NCBI GenBank assembly: GCA_963719085.1 | Contig: CAVRAL010000001.1 | Coordinates: 320,001 to 384,000 of the forward strand | Direction: 5' to 3' | Source: a candidate division FCPU426 bacterium | GTDB taxonomy: Bacteria; Oederibacteriota; Muellerivitia; Muellerivitales; Muellerivitaceae | DNA: 64,000 nucleotides | Shown: piece after piece, positions 8,009-53,328 of the stretch | Position numbering within the stretch: the stretch's first letter is position 1 | How the letters are laid out: the number at the start of each line of letters is the position of its first letter | Made by a program: the position numbers and the translations under genes | Notes under the pieces: model-generated | Told to the model about the DNA's origin: nothing | The model's database searches: none | The model's input: only the letters and a program-made list of their open reading frames with translations

Positions 8009-9084
8009 TGGAGTTATTAAACCAAGGCAACGGCCAACACAATTTTCACCGCCAAGACGCCAAGCTCGCCAAGAAAATCAAGAAACAATCGAGTTTTGAA
8101 AAACATTCATTTTTTAGCCTTACTTGGCGCACTTGGCGGCCACTCTTCCATAAAACAGTTAATGAGGGTGGCGCTGTCCCGCTTGTTTGGCCCAAGAGTG
8201 GGCCAGCGGGACGTCTTGGCGGTGAAAGGGTATTCAGTGTTTTGGCTTTGTTTGTTTGTCTTATGACAGTACCTTTGGCGGCCGTGGCGCAAACGCCCGT
8301 GCCGACCCCTTCGGCCAATACCTGGGACTATGCCGCTTTCCAAGCCGCCTTTAAGGCCAGCGGCCGCACGACGACCTTAACCCAGGAAAAGTTTGACGCG
8401 GTTCAGGTTCAAAAGAAGAAAGCCTATGACTATTTGAAGACCTATCTGGATGGCAAGTTCGGTAAGGCCAATCCCGCGGTCTTGGCCGGTTTCCAAGCTC
8501 TGCCGCGCGAGTATTACCACTACAACTACCAGAAGGGCAAAGATTTCTGCTCTTTGGCCTATGACATTCCCGGCAAGCCCTGGGCCATCGGTTATGGCTC
8601 CGCCTTGAGCGATTACCCCGGCCAGGCCTATATGATTCAGTTGGCCAGGCCGAAGCCCACGGATGTGGCTTTAGAAATTGGGACGGGAAGCGGTTACAAC
8701 ATTTCACTGCTCTCAAAAACAGTGAAGGAAGCCTACTCAATTGAGATCATCCAGCCTTTGGGTGAGGCGGTCTCCAACATTTTCGCGCCGCTTCATTTGA
8801 CCAACATCCATACCCGGGTCGGGGACGGCTTTTTCGGTTGGCCGGAGGTGAAGGGCGGGTTCAATTTGATCGTGGTTACCTGCGCCGCCCAATATGTGCC
8901 GCCCCAGCTTTTAGAACAGCTCAAGCCCAACGGCCGCATGATCATCCCCATCGGCCAGCCCTTCCGCGGCCATCAGGTGCTTTATGTCTATATGAAGGAC
9001 GCCGACGGCAAGGTTCATTCGAAGAAGGATATGGGCGTGTTCTTTATCCCGATGACGGGGCAGATGCAGAAGGGGAAGACGTAG
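8005..9084 (+). CDS. pcm: protein-L-isoaspartate O-methyltransferase-like protein with signal-peptide-like segment; start uncertain
   Basis: LEIGTGSGYN, GDGFFGWPE, QLKPNGRMIIPIG; ATG at 8005 overlaps upstream TGA; frame stays open across a palindromic element. Confidence 0.8.
   Translation: MMELLNQGNGQHNFHRQDAKLAKKIKKQSSFEKHSFFSLTWRTWRPLFHKTVNEGGAVPLVWPKSGPAGRLGGERVFSVLALFVCLMTVPLAAVAQTPVPTPSANTWDYAAFQAAFKASGRTTTLTQEKFDAVQVQKKKAYDYLKTYLDGKFGKANPAVLAGFQALPREYYHYNYQKGKDFCSLAYDIPGKPWAIGYGSALSDYPGQAYMIQLARPKPTDVALEIGTGSGYNISLLSKTVKEAYSIEIIQPLGEAVSNIFAPLHLTNIHTRVGDGFFGWPEVKGGFNLIVVTCAAQYVPPQLLEQLKPNGRMIIPIGQPFRGHQVLYVYMKDADGKVHSKKDMGVFFIPMTGQMQKGKT
8044..8227. repeat. palindrome family A, right arm interrupted by two-hairpin insert
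   Basis: TTTCACCGCCAAGACGCCAAGCTCGCCAAG ... CTTGGCGCACTTGGC[insert]GTCTTGGCGGTGAAA. Confidence 0.9.
8138..8212 (-). mobile_element. two-hairpin CGGGACA mini-element, copy 1 (subtype I)
   Basis: reverse complement closely matches 45896..45969 and sits at the same position in the host arm. Confidence 0.85.
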
Positions 9085-15393: not shown

Positions 15394-15567
15394 TTGAGCA
15401 ATGATGCCCCGGGACCCCATTGAAGGAGTCAAGGAGGCCCGGGACAATACCGCTCTCTCTTGACTCCTTTATGGAAGAGCGGCGCGGACGCAGATAAACG
15501 CCGATTTATGATAAACATGGGATTAGGCAGCTTTTTATCGGCGTTCATCCGCATTTATCATTGTTAA
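15394..15567. repeat. palindrome family B, left arm interrupted
   Basis: GCAATGAT[insert]GGACGCAGATAAACGCCGAT ... ATCGGCGTTCATCCGCATTTATCATTGT. Confidence 0.85.
15406..15485 (+). mobile_element. two-hairpin CGGGACA mini-element, copy 2 (subtype II)
   Basis: GCCCCGGG...CCCGGGACAAT-CCGCTCT...AGAGCGGCGC. Confidence 0.85.
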
Positions 15568-18209: not shown

Positions 18210-20768
18210 TTACCGCAGGATCAGCAGTTTGCCGACCGCGTGGCCCTGGCGGGTGGTGACGAGGATGTAATAGACCCCATTGGCCAACGGCGCGCCTTTC
18301 GCGTCGGTGACCGGCAGGGGCAGGGTCACTAAGCCCGCGGGAATGTTGGGGTAGGATGCCTGGTTTATTTTTCGAAAGGCCGTGGTGAAGGTTTTCAGTT
18401 CCACCTCGGCGGCGGCGGTCTGCATTAAAAATTGGATGCTCACCGGGCCTGAACTGGTGGGTGGGTTAGGGAAAATCACCGGCGGGCCGATGGGCGGCCC
18501 GGCGATCAAGGTAGGGGTAATCGTTGGCGACAAGGTTTGCGTGGGGGTTTGGGTCGGCGTCGCGGTTGGGGTCGGGGTCGGCAGAGGCGTGTGGGTGCGC
18601 GTGGGAGTCGGCGTTGGGGTGATGGTCATGGTCTCCGTAAAGGTTGCCGTAGGGGTAATGGAGGGCGTTAAGGTCACTGTGCTGGTTTCCGTCGGCGTCT
18701 GAGTTTGAGTCGGGGTTTGTGTCACGGTCGGGGTTGGAGTGAGAGTGGGCGTGGCCGTGAGTGTGGCCGTCAAGGTAACGGTGGGCGTCAGCGTGATCGT
18801 CGGCGTAGGGGTAATCGTGGGAGTCAGGGTCACGGTGGCGGTAGGGGTAACGGAGGCGGTCCAGGTGGGGGTTCCGGTGATGGTCGGGGTCGAGGTAATG
18901 GTCGGCGATGAAGTCCAAGTCTTCGTCAAGGTCACGGTCGCCGTGGGAGTAACCGTGGCGGTCAGGGTGGGGGTCGGTGTTTGCGAGGGGGTGGAAGTTG
19001 GGGTCGGGGTTTTGGTCACGGTCGCCGTCGGGGTCACGGTCGGCGTGCGGGTGGGTGTCGGCGTGTATTGGGTCAGGGTGATCTCATATAAGGTGGCCGA
19101 ACGGAAGGGCAGGGTGTCGGAAAAGGTATTGGCGGTAAAGGTGGGCGCTGCCGCGGGCGTGTAGAGGTTATAGGTGGTGGAATCGAACCGAAAGACCCGC
19201 ATGGAGACAATTTGCTGTCCCGCGGTGAGGTTGCTCAGCGTGACGCTGGCTTGGTTGTTGTTGGTGTAATCCTTGTTTAAAAGAATCACGTTGAGGCGCC
19301 CGGGGTGGCTGGTGTCGGTGGCCGCGTAAGCGGAAGTCAGGGACACCGAGCTGGTATTGGCCAAGACCGCCGTGGTCCCGAATTTGGCGTTGGCGCCGTC
19401 ATAGTTCAAATACATCTTGTAGGCGGCTTTCACGTAAGTGTCACTGGTGCCGTCATCCCACCGGCAAGCATAGACCCCGTATTTCCCCAAAATGCCCAGC
19501 GCGTCGGCCTCCGCCACGCCGCCGGAGACGTCCTCGCCCGAACCGTATTGATATTCGGAAAAAGAAAGCTTGGTGCCCGGATAATACTGGCTGACCGCCG
19601 CTTGAAGCCGGGGAATCAGGGTGATGGGTTTGTTGCCGATCGAGGAAGTGATCCAACTGGTCTCAGTGTAGGTCGGGTCCCAAAGCGACCTCGGAGCTTC
19701 CATGCGGGCAATAGCGACACCCTGGGTAATATTATCGTTCGTAATGCGCACTTGGCTCACGCCGTTGCTTCCGGTAGCTTCCGGATACCAATGCAGGTCC
19801 AGGTAATGCAATAGGCGCCGACCCGCCGTGGTGGAGGCTGTCTTCATGCCGGCCAAGTAGTAGTTGAGATATTGGACGCTGTTTCCGTTGGTATAGGGCG
19901 TTAGCAGGCTGTCATCGGACGCGCCTTGGTTGTTCACGTACTCGGCCCAGCCATAGCAAACCGGGCCTAAGACCTGGGCGTTGGGATCCATGGAGGTGAT
20001 GACGGTGGAAAGGCTCACGCCTTTTCCTAAAACTTCCGCGCAGGTGGGCTGGGCGGGATGGATATAAGGATGGGTGCTGTTCCAAAGCGCCGGCTCGTTA
20101 TCCAAATCATAAAACTTAGCCCCGCCGGTTCCGGCCATCCCCACGGTGTTAAAAAGATAGTTGAGGGATTCATCCATATAAACATTGTTGTCGGTGGTCA
20201 CGGGCGCGGTGGTAAAAGCGGAGCCTTTCACATTGACGACTTGTTTCCAATAGACGCCGGCGGTGTCGGCGGCGCCGGTGATGGACACGCTGCAATCGCA
20301 ATTGCCGTTGGCGGACACATAACCGGCCATGGGCAGGGTGATGAGGGAGTCCGCGTTTCGGGCGTTGTTGTTTTCGATGAATTGGGTCATCACGGTGGCG
20401 GGCAGTTGGTTGGCGTTTTGGGGCGGCGCGGGGTTCATGACGGACAGCAGGTACCAATCCTCTTCGTTGATGTAATCAGTCCCGGCGTTGGAAGAATTGT
20501 TTTCCCAGTTATAGCCCGTCATGCGGTTCCCGCCTTGGCGGTAGTAGGGAATTTGGGTGACTCCGATATCCTGGTTGGTCCCGTAGCTATGGATGTCAAT
20601 GGCGCTGTTATTTTGGGTCGGATCAATGGTGAAATTAACCGTAACGGCCCAGGCGGAACCCGCCCCAGCCAAAAACGTTATGAGTGAAACGGTTAAAAAT
20701 TTTCTGGAGAAAATAGGAAAAATGAAACGCCGCCTTGGCTTTAGTGAAAGATTTGAAAAGTTTACCAC
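18210..20768 (-). CDS. secreted GH44 endoglucanase/xyloglucanase with Pro/Thr linker and T9SS-CTD-like C-terminal domain; start uncertain
   Basis: [34 protein letters not shown]; long (TP)n linker; FPNP...LANGVYY...KLLILR tail. Confidence 0.9.
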
Positions 20769-23805: not shown

Positions 23806-26800
23806 ATGAAACCTAAAAAATCCGCCGCTTCCGTTCCCGCGCCTCCCTCCTTGGAGGCCTTTCTCCAGCCATTCCTCGAGAACAGCCCCATCATTTTTTG
23901 GTTCATGAACCCGGAAGGCATCGTCGAGTTTTCCTTTGGCCGGGGTTTGGAATCGCTGGGGGTGACGCCCCAGGAGCGGGTGGGAAAATCCGTTTTCGAT
24001 ATTTATCGGGACCATCCGAAGGTTTTGGAGTGCCTGCGCCGCGCGATCCAAGGGGAATCCTTCTCGGAGGTTGTTCCGGTCGGGGATATTTTTTTCGAGA
24101 CGAAATTCATCCCGCGGTTGGACGGCCAAGGCCGGTTGACCGGTTCCATCGGGATCGCCACCGATGTCACGAGCCGTAAAAAAAACGAGGAGTTGATGGA
24201 CCGAAGGGAACAGCATTACCGGTCCTTGATCGAGAACTCCCATGACGTCATTTATATCCTCGACGACAAGGGACACCGCACCTACGAAAGCCCCTCGGTG
24301 GAGAAGGTGCTGGGCTACAAGCCCGGCGAGCGCGCCGGCAGAAGCGTGTATGACTATATCCATTCCGAAGACCACTCGAACGTGCGCGAGATCTTCGACA
24401 AGCTGGCCCACGTGCCGGGCGTCACTTACCGGGTGGAACTGCGCGCCCGGCACAAGGCCGGCGGATGGCGGAATGTGGAGGTGGCCATCACCAATTTGTT
24501 GGAAGACCCGGCGGTGCGGGGCTGGGTCGTTAATTTTTGGGACATCACGGAGCTCAAACGCGCCGGCGAGATCGTGGAAAAGCAGGAGCAGTATTACCGC
24601 GCCTTGACCGAAAATACCCACGAACTGGTCGTGCTTTTGGACCGGGAAGCGGTCATCCGATTCGCCACGCCGTCGATCCAGAAAATTCTGGGCCACCCCC
24701 TCTCGGACCGGATCGGAAAAAACTTTTTGGAATGGGTCCATCCGGAGGATATTTACCGCACCAAGGAAGTTTTCACCCAAACCTATCTCTCGACGGGGCG
24801 GACCATGACGGTGGATTTCCGCGCCAGGCACCGGGACGGCTCCTGGCGTTTTTTGGAAGCGGCGGTCACCAACCTTTTCAACCACCCGGCGGTGGAAGGA
24901 ATGATTTTAAACGCGCGGGATGTCACCGAACGCAAAAAAACCGACGAGGCTTTGCGGGACCGGGAACGCTACTTCAGGGCCCTGACCGAAAACGCCTATG
25001 ACGTGGTTTATGTCATCGACCGGGACGGACGGCGGTTTTACGAAAGTCCTTCCACCGAGCGGGTGCTGGGATTTCGGCCCGGCGACCGGGATCCCGAAAG
25101 CACCTTTTCCTATCTTCATCCGGAGGACCAGGCGGCGGGGAAGGCGGCTTTCCAAAAATCCCTTCAAAATCCCGGGGTGCCGGTGGCGGCGGAACTGCGC
25201 ACCCGGCATAAGGACGGCCGGTGGATCCATATGGAAGTGGTGGCCACCAACCTGCTTGACGTGGCCGCGGTCCGGGGCGTGGTGGTCAATTGCCGTGAGA
25301 TCACCGAGCGCAAAAAAGCCGAGGAGGACCTGCGCCATTCGGAGGAGCGGTTCCGCAACCTGATTGAGAGCTCCCACGACGTGGTGAATCTTTTTGACGG
25401 GACCGGAAAAATTCAATATGTCAGCCCGTCGGTGAAAAGGGTTTTGGGTTATGAGACCGCCGAATTGATCGGCCAAACCAGCTGGGAATGGATCCATCCG
25501 GAGGACCTGGCCAAAGCGAGTCCGGTTTTTGAGCAGGTCATGCGGGCCCCGGGGCAGTCCCGGTCCATTGAAATCCGCTTGAGGCATAAGGATGGAACCC
25601 ACAAAAATATCGACCTCACCATGACCAACCTTTTGGACAATCCCGCGGTGCGGGGTATTGTGGCCAATTACCGCGACGTGACCGAGCGGGTCCGCACCGA
25701 GGAAAAATTCAGGAACTTGATCGAGAACTCCCGGGATGTGATCGCCGTGGTGGACATGCAAGGGCGCTCCTTTTATGTCAGCCCCTCGATCCGCAAGGTG
25801 ATGGGTTACGAGCCGGAGGATTGGATGGACCGCAATTTCCTGGAGCTCATCCATCCGGACGAGCGGGAAGCCGCCCGGCAGGGATTTGAACAGCTCATGA
25901 CCAGCCCCGGCGGCTCCATTTCGGCCCAAGTCCGGGCCCTGCATAAAAACGGCTCCTGGCGGCTGGTGGACGTGACCTGCACCAACCTTTTGCAGGACCC
26001 GACGGTGCAGGGGATTATTTTCAATTACCGGGACATCACTGAAAAGTATATGGCGGAAGAAGCGGTGAAGGTTTCCGAAGAAAGATTCCGGAACCTGATC
26101 GAGAATTCCAATGACGTGATCTCGCTCGTCAACGCCCAGGGGACGAACCTCTATATCAGCCCCTCCATCCGGAAGGTCATGGGCTATGATCCGGACGAAA
26201 GGATGGGCCGGAACTTTTTTGAGATCATCCACCCGGAGGACTTGGGATGGATTAAGAATGAATATGAGGATTTTTTGAGGCAGAAGAACAGCGTGCGCAC
26301 GATCCAGGCGCGGGCCCGGCACCGGGACGGGACCTGGCGCACCGTGGAAGTGACGGCCACCAATCTGCTCGACCACCCCTCCGTGGCCGGCGTTATTTTC
26401 AATTACCGGGACGTCACCGAGCGCCGCAAGGCCGAAGCGGCCTTGAAAAAGTCCGAGGAGAATTTTAGGTCGCTCATTGAGAAATCGCCCGACGCCATGA
26501 TCGTCCATACCGAGGAGAAGATTTATTACGTCAATGAGGCCTTATTGAAGCTTTTGGGTTATGACCTGCCCGACGATCTGGTGGGCAAGTCGCCCTTGAG
26601 CATGCTCCATCCGGACGACCATGAGAGGGTTTTGATACGGATCCGAAGGCTCAAACCCTTTGAGGGATTCAACCCGCCCCAAGAAAAAAGGTTTTTGCGC
26701 AAGGACGGGGGTTATATCGAGGTGGAAACGGTGAGCTTCTCCATTCTTTTTGAGGGGTCGCCCATGGTGGTGGCCATCGCCCGCGACTTGACCGACCGCA

Positions 26801-28889: not shown

Positions 28890-28964
28890 GCCCCGCCCGG
28901 CCTAGTTAGGCCGAACCAGGCGGGACATACCACCCTCAATATCATTTTATATATGGATGGTGGT
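28890..28964 (+). mobile_element. two-hairpin CGGGACA mini-element, copy 3 (subtype I)
   Basis: GCCCCGCC-GGCCTA/TAGGCC-GGCGGGACAT-ACCACC...GGTGGT. Confidence 0.8.
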
Positions 28965-28974
28965 GCCAAGACGC

Positions 28975-29048
28975 TCCCGGCGGCCGTAGTTCAGGCCAAT
29001 CGGCCGGGACATATCGCCTTCTTAATTATTTTTGTCAGGAGGGCGATG
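28975..29048 (+). mobile_element. two-hairpin CGGGACA mini-element, copy 4 (subtype I)
   Basis: TCCCGGC-GGCC...GGCC-GCCGGGACAT-ATCGCC...GGCGAT; boundaries +/-2 nt. Confidence 0.8.
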
Positions 29049-29072
29049 CAAGCTCGCCAAGAAAAAAGGCCG

Positions 29073-29150
29073 CATCCGTGTTCATCTGCGCGCGCGCCGC
29101 TCCACCCTCTATGAGCAAAGGGAGAGCGGCGTTGTCCCGGGCATCTGTGG
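29073..29150. repeat. family B right arm, interrupted
   Basis: CATCCGTGTTCATCTGCGCGC[insert]ATCTGTGG. Confidence 0.7.
29094..29142 (-). mobile_element. two-hairpin mini-element, copy 5 (subtype II, first hairpin deleted)
   Basis: minus strand GCCCGGGACAACGCCGCTC...GAGCGGCGC inserted after CAGAT. Confidence 0.7.
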
Positions 29151-30994: not shown

Positions 30995-31148
30995 ACAATG
31001 ATGTCCCGGGTCCCCCTATTGAAGTCAAAGCCGCCCGGGACAATGTCGCTCACCCCTAAACTGTTTTATGCAGAAGCGGCGCGGACGCTGATCAACGCTG
31101 ATAAAAAAACAAGACATTTGGTTCAAACCAATCCGCGTTCATCAATGC
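30995..31148. repeat. palindrome family B, left arm interrupted
   Basis: ACAATGAT[insert]GGACGCTGATCAACGCTGAT ... ATCCGCGTTCATCAATGC. Confidence 0.8.
31003..31082 (+). mobile_element. two-hairpin CGGGACA mini-element, copy 6 (subtype II)
   Basis: GTCCCGGG...CCCGGGACAATGTCGCT...AGCGGCGC. Confidence 0.85.
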
Positions 31149-37541: not shown

Positions 37542-37626
37542 ACAATGATGAACGCAGATGAAAACAGATTTTCAAAAAATTAAGGCTTATCTATTTTCAT
37601 CAGCGTCCATCTGCGTTCATCATTGT
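37542..37626. repeat. palindrome family B (empty reference copy)
   Basis: ACAATGATGAACGCAGATG ... CATCTGCGTTCATCATTGT perfect 19-bp arms. Confidence 0.9.
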
Positions 37627-45880: not shown

Positions 45881-46062
45881 TTTTACCGCCAAGGCGCCCC
45901 GCTGGCCCATTGGGGGCCAAACGAGCGGGACAGTGCCGCCCCCATTAATTTTTTTATGGAGGGGCGGCCGCCAAGTTCGCCAAGAACAGCGAAAGACGAA
46001 GGCTTTTAAAACATATTTGGATTTAGCCTTTCTTGGCGAACTTGGCGCCTTGGCGGTGAAAA
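45881..46062. repeat. palindrome family A, left arm interrupted
   Basis: removing the insert gives ACCGCCAAGGCGCCAAGTTCGCCAAGAA, the exact reverse complement of the right arm. Confidence 0.92.
45896..45969 (+). mobile_element. two-hairpin CGGGACA mini-element, copy 7 (subtype I)
   Basis: GCCCCGCT-GGCCC...GGGCC-AGCGGGACAGT-GCCGCCCC...GGGGCGGCC. Confidence 0.88.
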
Positions 46063-50934: not shown

Positions 50935-51987
50935 ATGAATCGTGTCCATCCCAAAACCAAGCTGGTTTGCACCATCGGCCCCGCTTGCCGCTCCGACGCC
51001 ATGCTGGAAAAACTTCTGGTGGCCGGCATGAACGTGGCCCGGATCAATTTCGCCCACGGCACCATTGAGAAGAACGGCGAGGACATCCACCGCGTCCGCA
51101 AGGCTTCCCTCAAAACCAAGCGCCCCTGCCAAATTTTGGCCGACCTGCCGGGCCCCAAGATCCGCGTAGGCCAATTGCGGCACGAGCCCGTGAACCTGGT
51201 GCATGGCAAGACCGTTTGGCTCACCACCCGAAAAATTTCCGGCAACGTGGCCCATATCCCCATCGAGTATCCCCAGCTTACCCAAAGCGTGAAGAAGGGG
51301 AGCGTGATCTACCTCAATGACGGCTTCATGCAACTGCTGGTCCTTTCGGTCAAGGGGACCGAGGTGGAATGTAAGGTGCTGGTGGGCGGGGAATTGTTCA
51401 CCCACAAGGGATTGAACCTTCCCTCGGCGAAGCTTTTCGTGGACCCTGTGACACCCCATGACCTGGAGATTTTGGAGTACGGCATGAAGGAGGGGGTGGA
51501 CTTCTTCGGGGTTTCCTTTGTCCAACGGGCAGCCGATCTGCTGAAAGTTCGCGCCTTCGCCAGCAAGCGGGGGAAAATCGTCAAGATCATCGCCAAAATT
51601 GAGCGTTCGGAAGCCATCCGCAACATCGATTCCATCCTCAAGGTCACCGACGGAATCATGGTGGCCCGGGGCGACTTGGGCGTGGAAGTTCCCATTGAGA
51701 CCATGCCCATCCTCCAAAAGCGGCTCATCGCCAAGGCCAACTGGGCCGGGGTGCCGGTCATCACGGCCACCCAGATGCTGGAATCCATGACCCACAACAT
51801 CCGCCCTACCCGGGCGGAAGTCACCGACGTGGCCAACGCCATTTTGGACGGAACCGACGGCGTCATGCTCTCGGGCGAGACCGCCATCGGCGAGGACCCG
51901 GTCAATACGGTGGAAATGATGGGCAAGATCGCCGTTTCGGTGGAAAAAGCTTTCCTGAAGGAAAAATCAGCGGTGCATTGGTTTTAA
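50935..51987 (+). CDS. pyk: pyruvate kinase (short, lacks the C-terminal domain)
   Basis: [47 protein letters not shown]. Confidence 0.92.
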
Positions 51988-52004: not shown

Positions 52005-52178
52005 ATTAGCAATGATATCCCGGGATTCCATATTGTGGTTAAAGATACCCGGGACAATGTCGCTCTCCCCTAACTTCTAAATGAGGAAGCGACGCGAACG
52101 CAGATGGAAGCCGATAGAAGATTTGTGAACCATTTGAATTTGTTTAATCCGCGTGTATCTGCGTTCATCATTGCTAAT
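52005..52178. repeat. palindrome family B, left arm interrupted
   Basis: ATTAGCAATGAT[insert]GAACGCAGAT ... ATCTGCGTTCATCATTGCTAAT. Confidence 0.92.
52017..52095 (+). mobile_element. two-hairpin CGGGACA mini-element, copy 8 (subtype II)
   Basis: ATCCCGGG...CCCGGGACAATGTCGCT...AGCGACGC. Confidence 0.88.
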
Positions 52179-53328
52179 AGGTCTTTTGATTTTTCTTTTC
52201 CAATAACTTCCGGTAAAAATCCATGTTCAATTGGCTGAGGGTTTCCAGGCTGAAGCGAAGCGCGCTTTTGCGGTTGGATTTCCCGAGCCGCGTCAAATCC
52301 TTCGGCGCGCGCGCGAGGGCCAGCAAGGCTTTGGCCCAATCCGCCGGATTGTCCGACTCCATTAAAATTCCGCCGCGGGAGTGGATCACCTCGGTATTGA
52401 GGATGTCGCCGACCCCGCCCCCGGCGCGGGCGATGACCGGCCTTTCGCAGGCCATGGCTTCCACGATGGCTAATCCGAAAGACTCCGCCGGAGCGCCATG
52501 GACCGCGATGTCCAAGGCGGATAAAAAGCCCGGAATGTCGGACACGTAGCCTTCGTAATCAAACAAACCGTCCAAACCCAATTCTTTTTTGAGGCGAAAA
52601 AGCCCTTCGGCGTAATTTTTCTCATCCGGCGCGGTTTGGCCGGCGACCTTGAACCGAAGCTTAGGATTTTTTTTCACCATCAAGGCCGCGGTTTTTAAAA
52701 GAAGTTCCTGGCCCTTGCCGGGCGTAAGCCGGGCCACCATGCCCACAATAGTATTTTTTTCCATCCTCCAAGCCGCGCGGATTTTCTCGCGTTGGGCCGC
52801 GTGAAATTGGAAGCGCTTCGTGTCCACCGGCGCGTAGCCCACGGCCACCCGTTCCGGGTCCACCGGGCAGGTCTCAATCACATTCTCCCGGATCATGGTC
52901 GAGCATCCTAAAACCCGGTCCACGCGGTCATAGAGGAAGCGGTGCAGGGGGTCTTTTTTTTGGACCCGGGACTCCACATGCTTGGAAAGCAGCAGGGGGC
53001 CTTTCCACTTAAACGCGCGCAAGATGGGCACCAAAAACCAAAGGTCCCGGGAATGATGGACGTGGATGACATCGGGCTTGAATTTCAAAAGGGCGCGGGC
53101 GGTATCCCAAAACCCGCTGGGATTCAGGTAGGACCGAAAACGATAAGGGAAAAGCGGGAAACCCTGGCGGACGGTTTCCTGCCCTAAGGAAGTATCCGGG
53201 TTGGTCCAAAGGACGGCTTGGTGGCCCAAGCGGCGGTATTGTTCGGCGAAAAGCAGGGGCACTTTTTCCCGGCCGCCCCAGCCCTTGGAGGCGATGACTT
53301 GGGCGATCTTTAAAGAGTTCTTTTTCAC
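52174..53328 (-). CDS. family 4 glycosyltransferase
   Basis: GGRE, PDVIHVH, ARLTPGKG, ESFGLAIVEAMAC. Confidence 0.92.
   Translation of the reverse strand: MKKNSLKIAQVIASKGWGGREKVPLLFAEQYRRLGHQAVLWTNPDTSLGQETVRQGFPLFPYRFRSYLNPSGFWDTARALLKFKPDVIHVHHSRDLWFLVPILRAFKWKGPLLLSKHVESRVQKKDPLHRFLYDRVDRVLGCSTMIRENVIETCPVDPERVAVGYAPVDTKRFQFHAAQREKIRAAWRMEKNTIVGMVARLTPGKGQELLLKTAALMVKKNPKLRFKVAGQTAPDEKNYAEGLFRLKKELGLDGLFDYEGYVSDIPGFLSALDIAVHGAPAESFGLAIVEAMACERPVIARAGGGVGDILNTEVIHSRGGILMESDNPADWAKALLALARAPKDLTRLGKSNRKSALRFSLETLSQLNMDFYRKLLEKKNQKTY

Follow-up and report, generated by a model that had tools for sequence, protein, structure and literature searches.

A twin-hairpin mini-element of about 78 bp that interrupts diverse repeats at C^A and C^G steps in one bacterial family

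The 79 bp at 52017-52095 of the window (the whole 64,000-nt stretch analyzed, G000:C1:320001-384000) are one copy of a gene-less element of ~78 bp, composed of two back-to-back hairpins, which inserts independently of the repeats that it interrupts. Its hairpins covary, its junctions follow a C^R rule that matches its own inner bases, it forms head-to-tail arrays, and its empty sites are enriched in stems. Our leading explanation, which we hold tentatively and at a little under even chances, is HUH-type single-strand transfer guided by the element's inner bases; neither a cognate enzyme nor an autonomous copy was found in this genome or the relatives searched.

A sequence-only reading of the window had proposed that excising the insert restores a perfect inverted repeat, and it does so exactly: with 52017-52095 removed, 52005-52016 plus 52096-52105 is the reverse complement of 52157-52178 (22/22), and this is the sole 79-nt deletion yielding a perfect 22-bp inverted repeat. 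Excision joins ATTAGCAATGAT to GAACGCAGAT. The host, as read from the sequence, is a palindrome of the GxxExxY-linked family B, with the outer part of its left arm at 52005-52016 (+), the inner part (GAACGCAGAT and a second 9-nt unit) at 52096-52115 (+), and the right arm at 52143-52178 (+), whose segment 52157-52178 is the perfect partner and contains a stop codon. That stop belongs to a family-4 glycosyltransferase gene (52174-53328, -), convergent with a pyruvate kinase gene (50935-51987, +); the two genes flank the locus and are given for context only. The empty sister host at 37542-37626 (strand unassigned) reads AATGAT^GAACGC, just as had been stated, and the filled sister copies, with inserts at 15406-15485 (-) and 31003-31082 (-), are broken at the identical GAT^G step, so that the common insertion point claimed for the three filled copies is borne out; the host copy at 30995 has a shortened right arm. 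Perfection of the 22-bp repeat is a property of the 52017-bearing host copy: clusters of B-arm motifs (n = 117) comprised 40 adjoining an insert, 40 empty two-armed hosts and 37 single or chance matches, and in the 40 empty two-armed hosts the longest perfect repeat had a median of 9 bp, reaching 22 bp or more once (29).

The further description of the boundaries as clean and duplication-free did not survive comparison with the rest of the family, where each junction carries the target dinucleotide (C|A...C|A) and the boundary is ambiguous by 1-2 nt, sliding by 1 nt (G) in the sister copies and by 2 nt in relatives (TG on the forward strand, CA on the other). The 52017 copy looks blunt and duplication-free because both its end bases have diverged; it is one of just 2 of the 34 copies of this genome's own B/C class with an altered terminal base (A52017 rather than G), and these two copies end in T on the minus strand.

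Read on the minus strand, the insert consists of hairpin Y (52057-52095, + coordinates), a 1-nt spacer and hairpin X (52017-52055, + coordinates; first base A where the consensus has G). On that strand the element as a family begins with A and finishes with C. The two halves are inverted homologues with a single variable base between them. At their meeting point lies an inner tetranucleotide, A-T-N-G (52055-52058, -), with T and G conserved and N variable, which we regard as the putative guide for the C^A step; across 135 copies this tag was A-T-N-G or A-C-N-G, with N being A in 87, T in 26, C in 16 and G in 6. Helix pairing was assessed in a 44-sequence alignment of own copies: 87.9% of cells were paired and 14 of the 16 pairs showed two-sided change, a pairing level reached by none of 500 shuffles, while slid-register controls gave 39-51%. 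A G.T mismatch at stem position 3 of the first hairpin was kept in 126 of the 135 copies, and the loops are not conserved. In X-Y forms, including the 52017 copy, the ends are unlike and pair within each half rather than mutually; symmetric forms in relatives have TG...CA-like ends inside repeated CA. Single-hairpin forms also occur (L259:325(-), L325:854(-) and L243), still C|A-ended on both sides. A kissing-loop, riboswitch or ribozyme reading was set aside, the loop complementarity (seen by eye) stemming from the halves being inverted homologues.

A covariance model found 89 matches in this genome, including both-strand doubles, which reduced to 60 full-length and 9 truncated loci. It also matched in 28 of 30 relatives within the same uncultured bacterial family; under stricter filters the figures were 27 of 30, against one weak match in 68 genomes of other families. 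Element count was correlated with genome size (rho 0.58) and less so with the count of RAYT-family matches (rho 0.30, P = 0.10). Rfam gave nothing at gathering score in the window, its E-value matches on nine loci all falling below gathering; BLAST of the window copy against 40 relatives gave no match, the query being too diverged; and exact 19-mers had no match in viral contigs. A loose pattern scan across genome contigs at large returned at least 112 stretches, and the 112 examined scored as chance matches. The literature covered does not describe the element so far, although subscription journals lay largely outside that coverage and repeat catalogues in supplements could include it.

Five further copies in the window occupy other hosts. 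Family-A hosts carry inserts at 45896-45970 (-; inner C-T-G, with a C^G junction) and 8137-8212 (+; C^G junction), and one family-A arm carries two, at 28890-28966 (-) and, in the next unit of the same arm, 28974-29049 (-). A truncated insert with hairpin X collapsed lies in a family-C arm at 29094-29142 (+). Elsewhere the window contains a long Thr/Pro repeat protein gene (18210-20768 (-)) and, at 24442-26445, five domain repeats at 378-bp spacing in a 1235-aa ORF at 23806.

That the insert arrived later than its host, as the sequence-only reading had held, is upheld by the range of what the element breaks. Hosts in relatives and metagenome contigs included several GxxExxY-type arm families, repeats of other sequence (which we take to be DUF559-, GIY-YIG- and four-helix-bundle-linked types) and start codons, and the element also interrupts a duplicated 5' piece of tRNA-Pro. 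One start codon was filled in three relatives and three metagenome loci while its orthologue in this genome (C1:69650) was empty, and at L175 excision of 76 bases restored exactly a reading frame, presumably ORF6N-like. The two copies in successive units of the single arm at 28890-29049 point the same way, as does the emptiness of the host at C5:80639-81035, where B-type arms bracket a PF13366 (GxxExxY) gene. Since it breaks into repeat families that are unrelated to one another, as well as into an ORF and a piece of a tRNA, the element moves independently. The earlier interpretation of insert and host is thus partly supported, and the phenomenon itself is real and more general than that reading saw. 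The other three PF13366 genes of this genome are bracketed by related arm families, and the element constitutes a second layer of parasitism upon GxxExxY-type repeats. One of the four GxxExxY genes (G000:C4:693746-694096) has an internal TGA stop. At L162 (G001:C133), tandem tRNA-Pro 5' fragments precede the intact gene, and one of them has an insert at the border of D-stem and D-loop.

Among 80 model hits 69 were intact-ended, 60 of those at C^A. The 135 copies were taken from loci L162 onward with a pattern that set the element's ends and left its flanks free. Read on the minus strand, 123 of them lay at C^A and 3 at T^G, which is C^A seen from the opposite strand, so that 126 of 135 have this junction, with the dinucleotide on either side of the element; 4 were at C^G, 3 at A^A and 2 at T^A. 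These copies span 94 distinct 10-nt contexts, a few of which are array joints or mis-bounded, and outside the fixed positions -1 and +1 their targets have little in common. Copies with inner C-N-G were sought by a targeted search, in which 50 loci were fetched and 16 copies passed the hairpin test; they were enriched in relatives G012 and G022. The junction was C^G in 15 of these 16, in 6 contexts, and 9 shared one host position. Counted by context, the ratio of C^A to C^G was 85:1 for T-N-G and 1:7 for C-N-G (P = 6e-9, with independence reduced by kinship and host copying). This genome's own family-A copies with inner C-T-G likewise lie at C^G. Own subfamilies without the 1-nt spacer need their boundary moved along the microhomology before a C^R junction is seen (by eye), and are not explained by the simple rule.

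In the reading that we prefer, the element would move in single-stranded, folded form, and a putative HUH (Y1/RAYT-type) transposase supplied in trans would cut and rejoin it at the C^A or C^G step; the target would likely be chosen through base-pairing by the inner bases, T-N-G or C-N-G. We infer a single-strand circle folded as a dumbbell, its C^A joint opposite the bulged N, followed by transfer of the strand to C^R steps that hairpin-prone DNA exposes and, later, by passive amplification as the host repeat is copied. The model for such guidance is TnpA-REP, which in vitro selects C|A via tag positions T2 and G4 and can be retargeted by altering the tag (PMC8266576); the swap between C^A and C^G that tracks the inner bases would, by analogy and from genome comparison, fit this rule.

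Two observations bear on a single-strand route. Identical head-to-tail arrays (eight identical 75-bp units at L232, with further arrays or dimers at L185, L353, L535, L603 and this genome's C4:139018), whose joints are the target step, suggest a circular form. Of 79 empty sites, 26 fell in inverted repeats, whereas 6% did so among 579 non-coding CA controls (P = 1.7e-10), an enrichment that may be inflated by survival bias in intergenic repeats. In the 60 own copies neither replication (lagging strand, 33:27) nor transcription (21:18) had left a strand bias, and host-mediated copying could be blurring any such bias. Contigs of four DNA runs had no joint skipping an insert, at a depth too low to be informative.

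Likeness to REP dimers (REPINs) and their RAYT transposases extends beyond the guide. REP dimers are tail-to-tail with 1-2 bp spacing (PMC3733652, PMC3116915, PMC8266576), and REP transposases require stem mispairs (PMC8266576). Set against these descriptions, the element shares two inverted hairpins as the repeated unit, a conserved stem mismatch, an inner-foot tetranucleotide, a C|A step whose genomic pattern, two exceptions aside, would fit T2.G4, tandem clusters, nesting in repeats, and vertical inheritance in one lineage. It differs in that its tag, A-T-N-G rather than GTAG or GGAG, is common to both hairpins; in that its ends are fixed at the hairpin feet, with a natural C^A-to-C^G switch that tracks the inner bases; and in that no repeat-bracketed RAYT gene accompanies it, the sole family-wide, single-copy RAYT-like gene being without HUH and catalytic tyrosine. 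A second comparison is with IS200/IS605, whose non-autonomous elements are the PATEs. Like these, the element has a hairpin at each end, adds no net target sequence, and would choose its site by DNA guidance (a rule described in PMC8266576), with a probable single-strand circle. Their two hairpins lie on one strand, where those of the element are inverted relative to each other, and its target is 2 nt rather than 4-5, with no full-length IS bearing its ends and no lagging-strand bias. The element works like a REP dimer or a PATE but belongs to neither, having no GTAG, no cognate gene and a 2-nt target. The cellular movement of REP-type repeats has yet to be explained (PMC8266576), in part because REP ends are ill-defined. 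In the present element the ends are exact, the distinct target contexts number 94, tandem arrays consist of identical units, and the target has changed naturally in step with the inner bases, so DNA-guided site choice can be read from genomes and a 78-base assay substrate is at hand.

The search for an enzyme counts against the guided HUH reading. This genome had no PF01797, PF01548, NF047646 or PF00239 match and no active Y1 gene. Its five tyrosine recombinases were not flanked by the element, and none of the relatives' Y1, IS110 or serine recombinase genes was bracketed by the hairpins; the relatives' Y1 genes bear terminal repeats of their own or GTAG-REPs, with inserts nearby on one side at two loci only. 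Local IS200 ends differ from those of the element, IS91 (PF04986) had matches in 0 of 31 genomes with the control likewise 0, and lone end modules occurred only at control level, which indicates that there is no autonomous copy. Besides the missing active Y1 here, the lack of bracketing and the lack of strand bias, that reading has against it two junction exceptions (L539 and L172, described below), cut sites placed directly at the hairpin feet, and a tag of ATAG rather than GTAG. Multi-copy Y1 genes of ~315 aa with GGGGTCAGG terminal repeats were seen at L206-L232 and L452-L481, and IS110 elements insert at those repeats.

One RAYT-like gene does share the element's range. Encoding ~110 aa, it is single-copy, lies at C4:664944-665351 (-) in this genome, and was detected in all but one of 30 relatives, with weak matches in two of the 29; of 68 other genomes, 3 gave a weak match. 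The protein matched NF047646 in 33 of 45 members, and a profile comparison linked it to a local RAYT (probability 88.6). An invariant WQW is retained at the position of the RAYT residues W94 and Q95, which contact the tag (PMC6006769), but RVE stands where HUH would be expected, and there is no Y---NP motif. The protein is by its sequence probably unable to cut; the gene also occurs in G017, which has zero inserts, and the common family range of gene and element proves no link. A fuller proposal, which we put forward as a speculation and rate as rather improbable, is a self-guided minimal transposon: a 78-nt single-strand dumbbell, two inner bases of which would program the target dinucleotide, parasitizing all the hairpin-forming repeats that a single bacterial family has, and driven by enzymes not yet described, among which the HUH-less protein might bind the twin hairpins and another protein might cut. 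In several genomes the HUH-less gene (L474-L476, L482-L487) lies behind or overlaps the end of an ABC substrate-binding-like gene (by eye).

The element could instead be a miniature derivative of the ends of RIT (recombinase-in-trio) elements, which have three tyrosine recombinases, moved by such enzymes acting on folded strands as integron integrases use attC hairpins; this we consider unlikely. A RIT in radC (L601, G012:C14:73500-76900; also L602) has long terminal repeats resembling the insert's first hairpin, and at both its ends the hairpin 5' arm equals the first-hairpin consensus (12/12) with one difference in the 3' arm; RIT ends in G005 are related to these, and RIT homologues occur in 9 of 30 relatives. 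This likeness, however, emerged from a search with the element's own motif at control-level counts, and other RITs have only TTATGCCG in common with the element. At RIT sites TT/AA flanks are retained, and the TTATGCCG boxes enclose a crossover spacer of ~6 bp, an arrangement absent from the element. No RIT was found in this genome, G016 or G044 despite their many copies, and the five own tyrosine recombinases were unflanked. Element and RITs have ATGCCG...CGGCAT boxes in common, one local RIT subfamily having a near-identical hairpin, and differ in the element's lack of TT/AA flanks, 6-bp spacer and genes and in its dinucleotide rather than site-specific target (PMC10214605, PMC5737581).

Conservative recombination through a matched 2-bp core, by a serine recombinase (IS607-like) or an IS110-like enzyme, is a further alternative: the circle joint would be an inverted repeat around CA, and the core of the donor would have to equal that of the target. 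Guidance and core matching mostly predict the same outcome, given that the inner bases are complementary to the ends of the element; most copies do show the dinucleotide at either junction, and targets are CG for the copies that end in CG. The two part in this genome's B/C class, where the first base is G in 30 of 34 while A follows the element in 32 of 34, at several host positions; the target there follows the inner T, not the first base. The core is identical at both junctions in relatives and not in this class, where one junction is C|G and the opposite one C|A in about 30 of 34 copies. Thus the B/C copies favor the guide; L539, with inner C yet a C^A target, follows its first base and favors core matching; and L172, with inner T but G following, fits neither. 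IS110/IS1111 elements insert into REPs and resemble the present element in entering palindromic repeats, as those of these genomes do, and in having a 2-nt core on both junctions, but local IS110 ends are unlike the hairpins and this genome has no IS110 gene. A PF00239 or PF01548 gene is likewise lacking here, serine recombinase genes, all unflanked, are confined to 2 of the 5 high-copy relatives, and a 78-bp double-stranded circle is hard to form. Taken together, core matching appears a little less plausible still than derivation from RIT ends.

An ordinary MITE, moved by a DDE transposase, bounded by terminal inverted repeats and duplicating 2 bp of its target, would match the symmetric forms of relatives, with their TG...CA-like ends in repeated CA and matching terminal inverted repeats; we think it very doubtful, since the X-Y forms (the 52017 copy among them) have unlike ends that pair within halves, the duplicated base should come from the target yet covaries with the inner base rather than being independent of element sequence, and, in this genome's B/C class, the element's first base is not the base that flanks it. 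An RNA-level element (a circular RNA or reverse-transcribed unit) could give arrays by rolling-circle reverse transcription, and a non-mobile host part whose "empty" hosts are deletions would suit the spread of filled hosts as units, but the two together are no likelier than the MITE, the former for want of an Rfam match, sense/antisense bias or loop conservation and the latter being excluded by unrelated hosts, the empty orthologue and the broken ORF.

Passive copying together with the host, the last step supposed in the guided single-strand reading, is visible in this genome. The loci C4:148364 and C4:604777 have host, insert and flanks in common, within a near-identical composite of ~230 bp (outer repeat, family-B host and insert; G000:C4:148230-148520 and C4:604643-604933) that reflects recent copying as one unit. 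Filled hosts have thus partly spread as units, and copy number overstates the number of insertion events. At L336, L356 and L175 a further small element with TTAA-like ends sits in the loop of the insert, a third level of nesting. Host-free tandem copies lie immediately upstream or downstream of genes at G000:C4:139018-139176, C4:902899 and C4:453603; one of them ends at a ribosome-binding site, where it could affect translation.
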